Shown here in pieces: positions 1-46,540 of a stretch of DNA of 64,000 nucleotides; within the stretch, counting starts at the first letter, position 1; every line of letters begins with the position of its first letter. The DNA is from a virus. A model generated the notes under the pieces. That model had not been told where the DNA came from. It saw only the letters and a program-made list of their open reading frames with translations, and made no database searches. The translations under genes and the position numbers were made by a program. The stretch covers positions 136,745 through 200,744 of the IMG/VR virus record IMGVR_UViG_3300024983_000001. One strand, given 5' to 3'.

Positions 1-121
1 GCGAATGCGAAACTCGAGCGATTGATGACGACGACCCTGTGCTAAAGTCCTGGGTGGCTCAATGGGCCGAGCAATGGAATCGAGTGACGGGCGACTCGTT
101 CAAACCGAAGTGGAAAGAGTG

Positions 122-442
122 ATGTCTTACAAACTGTTCATTGATGATGAGCGATTCCCAGTCACGGATGATTGGATCGTCGCCCGCTCTTCACAAGAAG
201 CTGTTGGGGTTATCACCGTATATGGCTTCCCCATGGAGATTGCTTTCGATCATGACCTTGGTGGTGATGATACCAGCATGAGATTCATTAATTGGTTGTT
301 GGATCAGATTCTTGATGAGAACCTGGCCATTCCAGTTGGGTTTAAATACAGTGTTCACTCCCAGAATCCTGTGGGAGCAAAAAACATTAAGGATGTGATG
401 GACGGCATTCTGTATAATTTTGGTCCTAAGCAGTTGACTTAA
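122..442 (+). CDS. cyclic-phosphate processing receiver-domain protein
   Basis: KLFIDDERFP...IAFDHDLG...VHSQNPVG motifs of the stand-alone receiver family seen near phage RNA-repair genes; start placed at MSYKLF. Confidence 0.75.
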   Translation: MSYKLFIDDERFPVTDDWIVARSSQEAVGVITVYGFPMEIAFDHDLGGDDTSMRFINWLLDQILDENLAIPVGFKYSVHSQNPVGAKNIKDVMDGILYNFGPKQLT

Positions 443-1910: not shown

Positions 1911-2115
1911 GCGGGTGTAGCTCAGCGGTGTTTACGCATTATCCAGTAGGTTGGCCAACTGATCGGGTAGTGGGCAGGTAACGCACAGACGGTAGATTAG
2001 CATACATATTGAGAAGGAGTAACGTTCCCTTCATACGTATGCGAAGGATCGAATGTGTCAGAGCAGCTTTTTGATAAAGAGCAGGTCGGTGGTTCGAATC
2101 CATCTGCCCGTACCA
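1911..2115 (+). tRNA. tRNA-Ile(GAT) interrupted by ~128-nt insertion in D loop
   Basis: 1911-1929 joined to 2059-2115 gives a canonical 76-nt tRNA-Ile ending ACCA. Confidence 0.8.
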
Positions 2116-2127
2116 AATTTGTAGTAA

Positions 2128-2243
2128 GCGAGAGTGATGGAATGGTATACATAGGAGACTTTTTCAAGGATCTGCGAAGAGCGGGTTCTTCTTAAAATCT
2201 CCCGGCTTCGGCTATAGGGGTTCGAGTCCCCTCTCTCGCACCA
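2128..2243 (+). tRNA. tRNA-Leu(TAA) interrupted by 32-nt insertion in anticodon loop
   Basis: GCGAGAG/CTCTCGC acceptor, GGAGA/TCTCC stem, CT[32 nt]TAAAA loop, type II variable arm, ACCA. Confidence 0.8.
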
Positions 2244-2252
2244 AATACATAG

Positions 2253-2738
2253 TTATGCTTTGTTACGGCCTTTGTTCTTCCCACGATATGTAGGGGTGAG
2301 GGCGTGACAGTTAGGGCATAACAACCGTAGATTATTCAGGCGATTGTTACTCGAGTCACCATCTATATGGTCCAGTTCCACAGGGATTGGATTATCCAAC
2401 CAAGTATCATTATCACACCCGCAGCAGCGGCGCTCCAACATCCCTTCCTGTAATAAACGATTCTTCAGACGAAAGGAGTTTATCTCTATGCCACCGTTCA
2501 AGTAATCATTAATGTCTCTCTTTGGTTGCTGTGTGCCCTTGTTCCAGCCTTTGCCCTTGAAGTGAGTTGTGTCAATGCTATAGGTAGCTACCGCCTTCTC
2601 TATTATCTTGTAGTTGCCACCCCTTGCGGCGACACCCAACTTCAGCAGCGCCTGTCTCACTGAAGTGGAATTTGTAATTGCTGCCCGCAAAGTCTGTTCA
2701 TCGTAACTATGTTTCATAACATCTCCATTGGAATACAC
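2253..2738 (-). CDS. HNH homing endonuclease
   Basis: CCGC...ELDHIDGDSSNNRLNNLRLLCPNCHA; start may be 2717. Confidence 0.9.
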   Translation of the reverse strand: MYSNGDVMKHSYDEQTLRAAITNSTSVRQALLKLGVAARGGNYKIIEKAVATYSIDTTHFKGKGWNKGTQQPKRDINDYLNGGIEINSFRLKNRLLQEGMLERRCCGCDNDTWLDNPIPVELDHIDGDSSNNRLNNLRLLCPNCHALTPTYRGKNKGRNKA

Positions 2739-2894: not shown

Positions 2895-3431
2895 ATGAAC
2901 ATCTTTAAACGTAAAGTTGCTTTAACCAAAGCTCCAGCCGCTGCTCGTGTTGAGACCCTCATTGGGCCCAAGACTACGATCACCGGTGACATTCGATTCG
3001 AGTCAGCTATTCGCATTGATGGAGATGTCCGTGGGAATGTCGTTCCGTCTGATCCTGTGAAGAGAGAGGTAACAGGTCCACTATCACATGTAACGATTGG
3101 TAAAGATGGAACTGTGTCCGGGGACATCGAGGCAGACAATGTCAGTATCGAGGGGGCGCTTTACGGAGAAGTCCTGGGCACCTGGGTACACCTGACAGCT
3201 ACCGCCAAAGTCTACGGAGATGTCAGCTACTACCAAACCCTCCAGGTCGATCCGGGTGCTCAAGTGGAGGGAAAGATGATCCGCATGAATTCTCTGTCAG
3301 CGATGTCTCCTTTGTCTGAAGATGAACACCAGGGTCACATTATGTCGCCTGAAGAAATTCAGGACGCCAATCTACCCCCACTACCATTATCAGGATCGGT
3401 ATACGTTTCTACCCCTATTCCTGCGGTTTAA
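2895..3431 (+). CDS. bactofilin (polymer-forming cytoskeletal protein)
   Basis: TLIGPKTTITGDI...IDGDVRGNV...IGKDGTVSGDIEADNVSIEG...GAQVEG beta-helix repeats. Confidence 0.85.
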   Translation: MNIFKRKVALTKAPAAARVETLIGPKTTITGDIRFESAIRIDGDVRGNVVPSDPVKREVTGPLSHVTIGKDGTVSGDIEADNVSIEGALYGEVLGTWVHLTATAKVYGDVSYYQTLQVDPGAQVEGKMIRMNSLSAMSPLSEDEHQGHIMSPEEIQDANLPPLPLSGSVYVSTPIPAV

Positions 3432-3520: not shown

Positions 3521-4051
3521 ATGAAGACCATTCAACCTACCACTACCAAGCTCGCCAGCCTATCCTGGGGACAACGTTTTGCCCTGATTGAAGCCTACAA
3601 ACTGTCGGCGGAGGCTGCTTGCGAAGCTTTCGGTGTTACGACCGAGGAGTTGACCACCGCTTCCGATCTGAAGGGCAAGGGCATCTTTAAAATTGACACC
3701 GTGATGGATGTTGCACCCTACGGCGAATTGTTTGGTGTAGCGCCGGTAGCTAAAGCTCCCCGTATGGCAGGCCCTGCCACCAAGAAAGTTGCTACTCCGA
3801 AGAAGCGCGGCCGCAAGGGCGACAAAATCACTACTGCATTCCTGGCTGTCCCCGTTACCCCGGTTAGTGTTGAGGCGTTCATGAGCGAGTTTGGTGTGTC
3901 GCTGGCAGTGCTTCGGCAAGCCAAACGTTTCGATACCACGGAGCTGGCATCTACCCGGCCCGTTCGAGTGAAAAAGGTGAATGGCATCCTTACCATCTGT
4001 CGCCCCGAAGCTGAAGTTGCTGGAGCCGAACCCGTCGCCGATGAAGCTTAA
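3521..4051 (+). CDS. hypothetical protein (basic KKRGRKG patch)
   Basis: ORF with RBS behind sigma70 promoter at 3447. Confidence 0.85.
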   Translation: MKTIQPTTTKLASLSWGQRFALIEAYKLSAEAACEAFGVTTEELTTASDLKGKGIFKIDTVMDVAPYGELFGVAPVAKAPRMAGPATKKVATPKKRGRKGDKITTAFLAVPVTPVSVEAFMSEFGVSLAVLRQAKRFDTTELASTRPVRVKKVNGILTICRPEAEVAGAEPVADEA

Positions 4052-4443: not shown

Positions 4444-4638
4444 ATGAACCACCTTTATTCACACCTTACTGTTGACGAGATACAATTTTATCTTGCGAGG
4501 GGTGTAGAGATGCACCCGCTGCTGTATCGTGCATTGATTGAAAAAATCTACGATATGGGAAGAAGCAACAAGGTTTGTCCAATACCACTCACTATCCTCG
4601 AGAGGTATTATTTCAACAAAATGAAAAAGGTGGGGTAA
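4444..4638 (+). CDS. hypothetical protein
   Basis: ORF, no family recognised. Confidence 0.65.
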   Translation: MNHLYSHLTVDEIQFYLARGVEMHPLLYRALIEKIYDMGRSNKVCPIPLTILERYYFNKMKKVG

Positions 4639-45589: not shown

Positions 45590-46540
45590 GTTTGAAATTC
45601 TCCAACTATTAGTTGGCACCGAAGTAGATAGGTGAATTTGAATCTGCTTAGTATAAGGGTCTAATGCAACGTCAGTTGTACCTTATTAAAAGCAAAAAGT
45701 TTTGGGGCATGACCCTGATAATCTTCCGTAAGGTTGAAAAAGCGAGGACGCCTACGCACTCGCGCCAGCAATGGTCAATTCATGCAAGCCCGACCCACCT
45801 CGAGAGAGGCTGATCGTTGCCAACAGCGGTCATATGGGGGAAGTTAGAGATGTGGAAAGAATGGGTGTTTACAAGCCTGAATCGAAAGAGGATGGGAACT
45901 TGTGCACGTAGAGAGTAACAGGTTGTGCTGACCTCACATCTACACAAACTAACCATCCCAAAGGTGTAAAGGGTAGTGTAATGGTCCGAACCCGCAAGTA
46001 AGGGCTGTTATGCAGGTTGATGGGGGTGTGGTGTCTCGCAAGGGATGTCATAATTCCTGAAAACTGGTTGAGTAATCGGCAGATGAAAGACATGAGGAGT
46101 GTGGTATTTTGATGTCCAAAAGATATTGAATCCACAGGAAGCGCACTTCTTGGTAGGTACAAAAGGTTAGGGTTAAAAGCCCATATAAATTTGGATTATA
46201 TTACTTAAAAACGCAAAGTCGTTTCCAGCGTTGTACTAAAGTGGCTTAATCCTCTAGTCGCGAGACAATAGAGGCGTCCGAAACTCGCAAGGTCGAAGAT
46301 GTTGAATGAAAGTTGCACGGTGGCCCGCAAGCCTTCATAGTTCGCAAGACTGACGGTATACAGAAATTCGAGTAATACAACGTGATGAGTGAACCGCCCC
46401 ACTCTAAAAAAGGCAGTCATGTTAACAGACGGTAGTGTGCGCAAGCAGCTATTGTGGATAAGAGTAGAACCGTGGGTGTCGCAGCCTATACGGATAATGA
46501 CTCGAAGGTGTTAATATATAAAGTATAATCTCAGCTTTAT
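45590..46540 (+). ncRNA. GOLLD RNA
   Basis: ~950 nt non-coding, own promoter (45553/45576), many GCAA/GAAA tetraloop hairpins, 3' blocks ACAACGTGATGAGT..CCGCC..ACTCTAAAAAAGGCAG, GGATAAGAGTAGAA, TAATCTCAGC recalled from GOLLD; flanked by tRNAs; 5' end approximate. Confidence 0.8.

Follow-up and report, generated by a model that had tools for sequence, protein, structure and literature searches.

To our knowledge, the established tRNA introns of Bacteria and their viruses comprise only self-splicing group I introns in the anticodon loop, together with the group II intron of plastid trnG. Group I introns of bacterial and phage tRNAs (tRNA-Leu UAA, Azoarcus tRNA-Ile and tRNA-fMet) measure at least ~200 nt, contain a conserved core (P3-P9, P4-P6) and have U as the last base of the 5' exon and omega-G as that of the intron, while the ~700-nt group II intron of plastid trnG-UCC, with its domains I-VI, is located in the D arm. 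Non-canonical bulge-helix-bulge (BHB) introns, some of them in the D loop, are possessed by tRNAs of Thermoproteales archaea and of the red alga Cyanidioschyzon, and need both EndA and the BHB motif, in which a 4-bp helix lies between two 3-nt bulges that contain the splice sites. The intervening sequences (IVS) of bacterial 23S and 16S rRNA are single hairpins that extend an existing helix and are excised by RNase III without religation, the RNA remaining functional as pieces held by base pairing; we know of no description of such excision for a tRNA. Conserved 'enigmatic' introns that cannot be classified with Rfam, and whose removal mechanism is unknown, have been described in tRNAs of the Lak megaphages (Devoto et al. 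2019, Nat Microbiol, PMC6784885; preprint 10.1101/356790). They were called with tRNAscan in eukaryote mode, that is, in the anticodon loop, in tRNAs for Phe, Gly, Thr and Tyr, and the same authors suggest that such introns may be common in large phages (PMC6784885). Our full-text literature searches found no later explanation of the Lak introns, and no bacterial or phage tRNA described as having an insert in its D loop.

The Lak introns are the nearest precedent for the gene described here, a tRNA-Ile gene of a huge phage with an insert that is likewise conserved and unclassifiable with Rfam, and whose removal restores a tRNA. They differ from it in that the present insert lies in the D loop and has a fold supported by covariation, neither of which has been reported for Lak, and the phage itself, a jumbo phage of wastewater and bioreactors, is unrelated to the Lak phages. 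The window analysed, 64,000 nt in length, corresponds to bases 136745-200744 of a 257-kb IMG/VR virus record that is linear, ~78% complete and derived from bioreactor and wastewater metagenomes, and in which ARAGORN finds ~51 tRNA genes.

The gene occupies positions 1911-2115 of the plus strand (205 nt with the insert). Its 5' part (1911..1929) consists of the acceptor strand GCGGGTG, TA (U8-A9), the D-stem strand GCTC and the D-loop sequence AGCGGT, and its 3' part (2059..2115) of CA, the D-stem strand GAGC, an anticodon arm with the loop TTGATAA (anticodon GAT), the variable loop, the T arm, the 3' strand of the acceptor stem and ACCA. Between them, at D-loop positions 20 and 20a/21, lie 129 nt (1930..2058), the junction being ambiguous by 2 nt because GT both precedes the insert and ends it. 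When the two parts are joined in silico they form a 76-nt tRNA-Ile(gat) with an ARAGORN score of 117.6, in which the 7-bp acceptor stem, the D, anticodon and T arms, U8, G18G19, the T-loop TTCGAAT, A73 and CCA are all present, as in the cloverleaf of a functional tRNA; three pairs of the acceptor stem are G-U. The unjoined gene is missed by ARAGORN and gives only a partial match to the Rfam tRNA model (21.7 bits). A reading made earlier from the letters of the window alone (hereafter the sequence-only reading) had recognised a tRNA-Ile(GAT) split in the D loop with halves that give a canonical 76-nt tRNA, which direct inspection and the ARAGORN score bear out; its insert size of ~128 nt was of the right scale but one nucleotide short. 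That reading had also allowed for a mis-join of reads. Contigs of sequencing run X6, however, match the window at 100% across 1671-2500 and an identical split gene is present on a 346-kb ENA scaffold (L388), so that mis-assembly is rejected by the presence of the insert in independent assemblies. The protein encoded next to the split gene was found on 21 contigs, in two variants.

A relative of this gene was found in three sequences (L010, a 176-kb ENA scaffold; L011, a Logan contig; and L389). It carries a homologous insert of 127 nt at the identical site, and its flanks (1300-1940 and 2083-2120) are ~96% identical to ours while the segment 1941-2082 is strongly diverged. This mosaic pattern points to another split gene of like kind as the source of the diverged segment, and more diversity must hence exist than we retrieved. 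The 5' part (1911-1929) is the same in both genes except for C16T (AGTGGT in the relative, AGCGGT in ours), and the blocks that do not vary between the two are GTTTACGCATT at the 5' junction, CAGGTAACG, GGTAG and AAGGAGTAACGTTCCCT. The anticodon loop of the relative is TATATAA, so the anticodon is UAU and still specific for Ile, but A33 replaces the near-universal U33. With the insert removed the relative scores 113.4 in ARAGORN, and the Rfam tRNA model spans its entire split gene (36.5 bits against a threshold of 29).

A third case is a lone tRNA-Ile(GAU) on an unrelated 21-kb viral contig (L005, 34% complete), whose 127-nt insert occupies precisely this site. Spliced in silico it scores 113.8, and its insert also folds as two tandem hairpins. 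No similarity to our insert is detectable by sequence or by covariance model; the shared site, tRNA identity and length nevertheless suggest a common origin of the two inserts. Pattern scans of viral contigs for tRNA-Ile genes split in the D loop returned L005 alone, plus false positives formed by tandem tRNAs, and in a scan of genome contigs all 120 of the matches listed were tandem tRNAs or chance. Searches with insert motifs gave only chance or coding matches among the matches listed, and a search with an exact 28-mer found nothing, although a 28-mer containing AGCGGT could not have matched the AGTGGT of the relative. Neither our insert nor that of the relative was found in GenBank phages by blastn, synteny searches through the cREC gene and through the neighbour gene of L005 revealed no additional split genes, and a covariance model of the insert (R1) matches ours and the relative only, neither the L005 insert nor a second copy in our genome. 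Among the sequences searched, D-loop-split tRNA-Ile appears to be rare: two lineages carry homologous inserts, and L005 provides an analogous one.

The insert folds as two tandem hairpins on the plus strand, hairpin 1 (1930..1982, ~53 nt) directly abutting hairpin 2 (1983..2058, ~76 nt), and separate minimum free energy (MFE) folds of our insert and of the relative's give this same architecture. Hairpin 1 contains P0 (1930-1935 with 1978-1982; invariant between both sequences), Pa (1937-1944 with 1965-1972; 8/8 pairs kept in both, with three double-sided changes) and Pa2 (1949-1952 with 1957-1960 around a GGCC loop; 4/4 kept, two double-sided changes). Hairpin 2 contains Pb1 (1983-1987 with 2054-2058), Pb2 (1990-1993 with 2048-2051; three one-sided changes with pairing retained), Pc (2000-2005 with 2037-2042; three double-sided changes and one broken pair) and Pd (2016-2019 with 2025-2028), which forms the invariant tip GGAG-UAACG-UUCC. 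The G-U pairs in these helices assign the structured RNA to the plus strand, and an RNA from the minus strand is rejected.

We tested covariation in a two-sequence alignment of our gene and the relative (A1) over the cloverleaf and the helices P0, Pa, Pa2, Pb1, Pb2, Pc and Pd. Standard pairs are formed in 99.1% of the cells, and 13 pairs have changed on both sides while still pairing (slid controls 0-3; these values were attained in 0/500 shuffles). Besides those in Pa, Pa2 and Pc, the double-sided changes affect four of the five pairs of the anticodon stem and one pair of the T stem, where all changes remain paired. These 13 compensatory double changes imply that the insert is a selected, structured RNA and not part of a decayed pseudogene. 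Judged from the alignment, the gene for the 205-nt precursor is being maintained, both its tRNA stems and its insert helices being kept by compensatory change. Covariation across homologues was a check proposed in the sequence-only reading, and its outcome contradicts the decayed pseudogene without a conserved fold that the same reading had named as the finding that would overturn it. The helices drawn in that reading do occur in our sequence, but its closing helix ACGCATT/AATGTGT retains only 3/7 pairs in the relative, and gives way to the two tandem hairpins as the conserved fold; its ATCC/GGAT helix covaries (GTGT/ATAC) but competes with the better supported Pa and Pb2.

The fold with two tandem hairpins is supported, though not proven, by these two homologous sequences. 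RNAalifold recovers the cloverleaf, Pa and Pa2, and offers a competing fold for hairpin 2 in which AGGUAACG pairs with CGUUCCCU, two blocks that never vary. The conserved block CAGGTAACG (1975..1983, plus strand), which is one of two GUAACG motifs and is invariant between our gene and the relative, has two possible pairing partners, the 5' GUUUAC (P0) and CGUUCCCU at 2026-2033. Folds constrained to contain the cloverleaf lie ~1.5 kcal/mol or less from the free MFE. If the hairpins are stacked, as they may be, the first and last nucleotides of the insert would lie side by side at the D loop. A further stretch of the insert, GTGGGCA (1970-1976), can form all seven pairs with TGCCCGT of the acceptor 3' strand and does so in the free MFE of the 205-nt RNA (6/7 pairs are possible in the relative), which could be an alternative fold of the precursor, or chance. 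GTGGGCA has no D or anticodon arm after it, and a tRNA nested inside the insert is rejected, as ARAGORN and Rfam find none within 1930-2058.

The insert matches none of the classified intron types. In cmscan searches against Rfam at E up to 10, the inserts of our gene, of the relative (L010) and of L005 matched no family, including the self-cleaving ribozymes (hammerhead, twister, pistol, hatchet, HDV-like and others), and Intron_gpI was not found in 1300-2400, L005 or L010 at the same threshold. Like the group I introns, the insert interrupts a bacterial-type tRNA gene, tRNA-Ile being a known host, and U is the last base of the 5' exon in each of the three split genes. However, the inserts measure 129, 127 and 127 nt (ours, the relative and L005), below the group I size of ~200 nt, and lie in the D loop; a terminal G is possible in ours (by a 1-nt shift) and in L005, while the insert of the relative ends in CUUCUUU. 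A group I intron is therefore rejected for its short length, the lack of a match to the core model and the missing terminal G of the relative, and without this omega-G group I chemistry is unlikely. A group II intron is rejected as well, as group II introns start with GUGYG, end in AY, contain a domain V and measure several hundred nt, while the 129-nt insert starts with GUUUA and has no Rfam group II match; the resemblance to the plastid trnG-UCC intron lies in the D region of a bacterial-lineage tRNA, and nothing comparable to group II is present here. These results agree with the sequence-only reading, which had called the insert too short for group I or II and devoid of their core motifs, and had proposed the Rfam covariance search.

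With the archaeal and Cyanidioschyzon introns our insert shares a protein-free appearance and a position off the anticodon, the D loop included, in an otherwise normal tRNA. In contrast to them, no BHB could be drawn in the three sequences: a script run over all junction shifts that yield the identical mature tRNA found a central helix with 0-3 of 4 pairs and weak outer helices in ours, the relative and L005, so that a BHB intron, a type which the sequence-only reading had described as archaeal in the D loop, is rejected. Neither EndA (tRNA_int_endo, PF01974) nor RtcB was found in the 257-kb, 78%-complete record. Like the insert, the rRNA IVS are extended hairpins (~100-150 nt) placed in the loop of a structural RNA, and they would offer a workable model for a two-piece tRNA of 19 + 57 nt. 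They differ in that two hairpins here occupy a loop, and RNase III was not found in the phage record (78% complete). The insert is single-copy in the 257-kb genome, and a MITE with inverted ends is rejected because the relative has no terminal repeat.

Interrupted tRNA genes are not confined to tRNA-Ile in this phage. A homologous insert of 31-32 nt is found at anticodon-loop position 34/35 in tRNA-Leu(UAA) (window 2128-2243; 32 nt), in tRNA-Leu(UAG) upstream of the window (genome 135370-135485; 32 nt) and in the relative at 4505-4620 and 8209-8322 of L010, a Leu-like gene being among the carriers. It folds into a 10-bp hairpin whose top (UCUGC / GCGGG, including U-G pairs) is conserved and whose base covaries, and an uninterrupted tRNA-Leu of an Alcaligenes phage aligns to both exons of the interrupted Leu gene. 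Uninterrupted genes for Leu(UAA) and Leu(UAG) are also present in the genome, so each interrupted gene has an uninterrupted isoacceptor. The occurrence of the Leu inserts in both our genome and the relative indicates that interrupted tRNA genes are a habit of this lineage. A 135-nt tRNA-like gene ending in CCA lies at genome 134253-134387, ~2.4 kb upstream of the window start. Its D and T arms are of the Leu type, and its anticodon arm is enlarged by ~59 nt that contain CAGGUAAGCG and GCGGUAACCCUUCC, which are like conserved blocks of the Ile insert.

Taken together, the phage probably removes the insert, or uses the larger RNA, by a route not yet described. The sequence-only reading had named a new small intron or ribozyme, a protein-spliced intron and a tRNA-scaffolded RNA domain as candidates, and these are weighed here. 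The reading we prefer, with a probability of roughly 0.4, is that the insert is an intervening sequence removed by proteins, followed either by sealing with a ligase or by use of a two-piece tRNA, and that the product decodes Ile codons. The insert would not excise itself but be taken out after transcription by proteins, with endonucleases cutting at the base of each hairpin and leaving adjacent ends at the D loop, while the acceptor and D stems hold the tRNA halves together. The halves may then be sealed by the Rnl1-type ligase of the phage with cREC-type healing of the ends, or else stay unligated as a two-piece tRNA, as with the rRNA intervening sequences, and the mature product would decode Ile codons. 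A decoding product is favoured because the anticodon stays specific for Ile (GAU against UAU) while its stem has been rebuilt. From established tRNA-ribosome contacts, a domain of ~130 nt at the tRNA elbow is probably incompatible with the ribosome, and with such bulk at the elbow a decoding product requires removal of the insert; protein-mediated excision is favoured by the lack of any ribozyme signature.

Several observations are consistent with this protein-mediated removal, among them the canonical cloverleaf restored in all three known cases (117.6, 113.4 and 113.8), the strong covariation, the absence of a match to any ribozyme or intron family, the sister inserts in tRNA-Leu genes of the same lineage and the unclassifiable conserved tRNA introns of megaphages (Devoto et al. 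2019). The genome encodes an RNA ligase (RNA_lig_T4_1, Rnl1-type; 66.8 bits), and a cyclic-phosphate processing receiver protein (cREC_REC, PF20274; 68.3 bits) is encoded at window 62-442, ~1.5 kb upstream of the split gene. Proteins of the cREC type have been proposed to heal cyclic-phosphate RNA ends and linked to RNA ligases (Iyer et al. 2021, PMC7824862). The cREC homologues in 16 other viral contigs are not located beside tRNA clusters. Against removal by proteins, EndA, RtcB and RNase III were not found in the 78%-complete record, which also has no clear polynucleotide kinase but only a weak P-loop match, and Rnl1 is missing from the L005 contig (34% complete). T4 Rnl1 moreover is known for repair of the anticodon loop and not of the D loop. 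The fold is supported by two homologous sequences only, the A33 of the relative departs from the near-universal U33, and the genome has two uninterrupted tRNA-Ile(GAU) genes elsewhere, so that the interrupted copy is not needed for decoding. Among sequencing runs on record as RNA none contains the locus, and run X13, labelled RNA-seq, gives only fragments resembling the exons or other tRNAs. A broader proposal, which we consider possible but doubtful, is that viruses of bacteria possess their own tRNA-splicing pathway, in which a small structured intron of neither group I/II nor BHB type, located even in the D loop, is cut out and the tRNA rejoined by proteins or by an unrecognised ribozyme. 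The proteins would be of the phage or the host, for instance the Rnl1-type ligase, and both the Ile insert and the 32-nt tRNA-Leu inserts would be substrates.

Many of the same observations can be read differently. The insert may be retained, yielding a tRNA-shaped RNA of ~205 nt with a two-hairpin domain at the elbow and ends processed as in a tRNA. The role of such an RNA would not be ordinary decoding but, for instance, that of a decoy or sponge for host nucleases that target tRNAs, of a scaffold for protein binding or of a regulator. Positions 20a and 20b belong to a naturally variable, solvent-exposed part of the D loop, and insert ends that abut there can preserve the L-shape; the energetic cost of the cloverleaf-constrained folds is small (~1.5 kcal/mol). 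Structural selection on an interrupted copy despite uninterrupted isoacceptors also suggests a function of its own, and the A33 of the relative, the other odd tRNA-like genes and the GOLLD RNA in the window, and the failure to find splicing machinery in the genome point the same way. Still, we regard retention as unlikely: an anticodon that stays specific for Ile through a complete rebuilding of its stem is hard to explain without decoding or recognition by IleRS, the CCA end and canonical T and D elements suit an ordinary tRNA, and we know of no precedent for a large retained D-loop domain.

The redundant decoding capacity, which weakens protein-mediated removal, would also fit a DNA-level insertion that disabled a dispensable tRNA-Ile, with conservation reflecting recent descent and recombination. 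The three G-U pairs in the acceptor stem, the rarity of such genes among the sequences scanned and the mosaic tRNA array with free-standing HNH and GIY-YIG genes nearby are compatible with a dead or selfish interruption of this sort. We nevertheless find it improbable, as decay does not yield 13 compensatory double changes with 99% pairing, and a diverged segment (1941-2082) between ~96% identical flanks means that the donor was itself an intact split gene; nor are there terminal inverted repeats (in the relative), a long target duplication or a second copy in the genome. The same conserved fold, in which the single-stranded or tip motifs GUUUACG (5' junction), CAGGUAACG and GGAGUAACGUUCCCU do not vary, and an insert size like that of small ribozymes, could be taken to indicate a new self-cleaving or self-splicing ribozyme that excises itself, ligation being performed by itself or by a ligase. 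This we hold to be very improbable in view of the missing Rfam ribozyme matches in all three inserts, a 3' junction that varies (GUGU, CUUU and GGCG) and an L005 insert without detectable similarity.

A conserved, covarying insert of ~128 nt in a D loop that lacks the known hallmarks implies either an unknown excision step, possibly with ligation, in the tRNA processing of phage-infected bacteria, or a large functional domain at the elbow. Either outcome would widen the present view of how tRNAs are made and of the conflict between phages and hosts over tRNAs, and the locus, at 205 nt, is small enough for direct tests in vitro and in E. coli.

The split gene is part of a tRNA cluster with the cREC gene (62-442) at its head, followed by a 70-aa ORF (490-702), tRNA-Asn (at 707), a Met-like tRNA (at 1410), tRNA-Gly (at 1647), an odd Arg(UCU)-like tRNA (1726-1797), the split tRNA-Ile gene and the interrupted tRNA-Leu(UAA). 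Further downstream are a free-standing gene for an HNH endonuclease (2253-2738, minus strand; HNH_3, slightly below the Pfam cut-off) and a bactofilin gene (2895-3431), and a GOLLD RNA is located at 46094-46537. The neighbouring bactofilin, cREC and GOLLD suggest a bacterial host. The HNH gene directly follows the interrupted tRNA-Leu and is missing at this place in the relative, whose downstream region is rearranged and whose tRNA array includes a GIY-YIG gene (SegE-like, faint). On the minus strand at 1881-1909, abutting the 5' end of the split gene, we observed a strong match to a sigma-70-like promoter (TTGAAA, 17-nt spacer, TATAAT; 11/12), directed antisense to the upstream tRNAs; its TTGAAA hexamer is retained in the relative. 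The Arg(UCU)-like gene at 1726-1797 is 72 nt long, ends in CCA and is identical in the relative. It is missed by ARAGORN and scores below threshold in Rfam (20.7 bits), yet its acceptor stem is perfect and its D arm compact; the stem below its anticodon loop, CTTCTAA (UCU, Arg), contains an A-A mismatch. Outside the window, at genome 59521-59596 (minus strand), ARAGORN reports a tRNA whose anticodon, CUA, is that of an amber suppressor (labelled Pyl), a hint that this phage may suppress stop codons. In another phage of 524 kb (IMGVR_UViG_3300037418_001546; L174), ARAGORN finds a tRNA-Met with a 196-nt intron in the anticodon loop (3657-3936) that adjoins a cREC gene, and this intron could be a group I intron.
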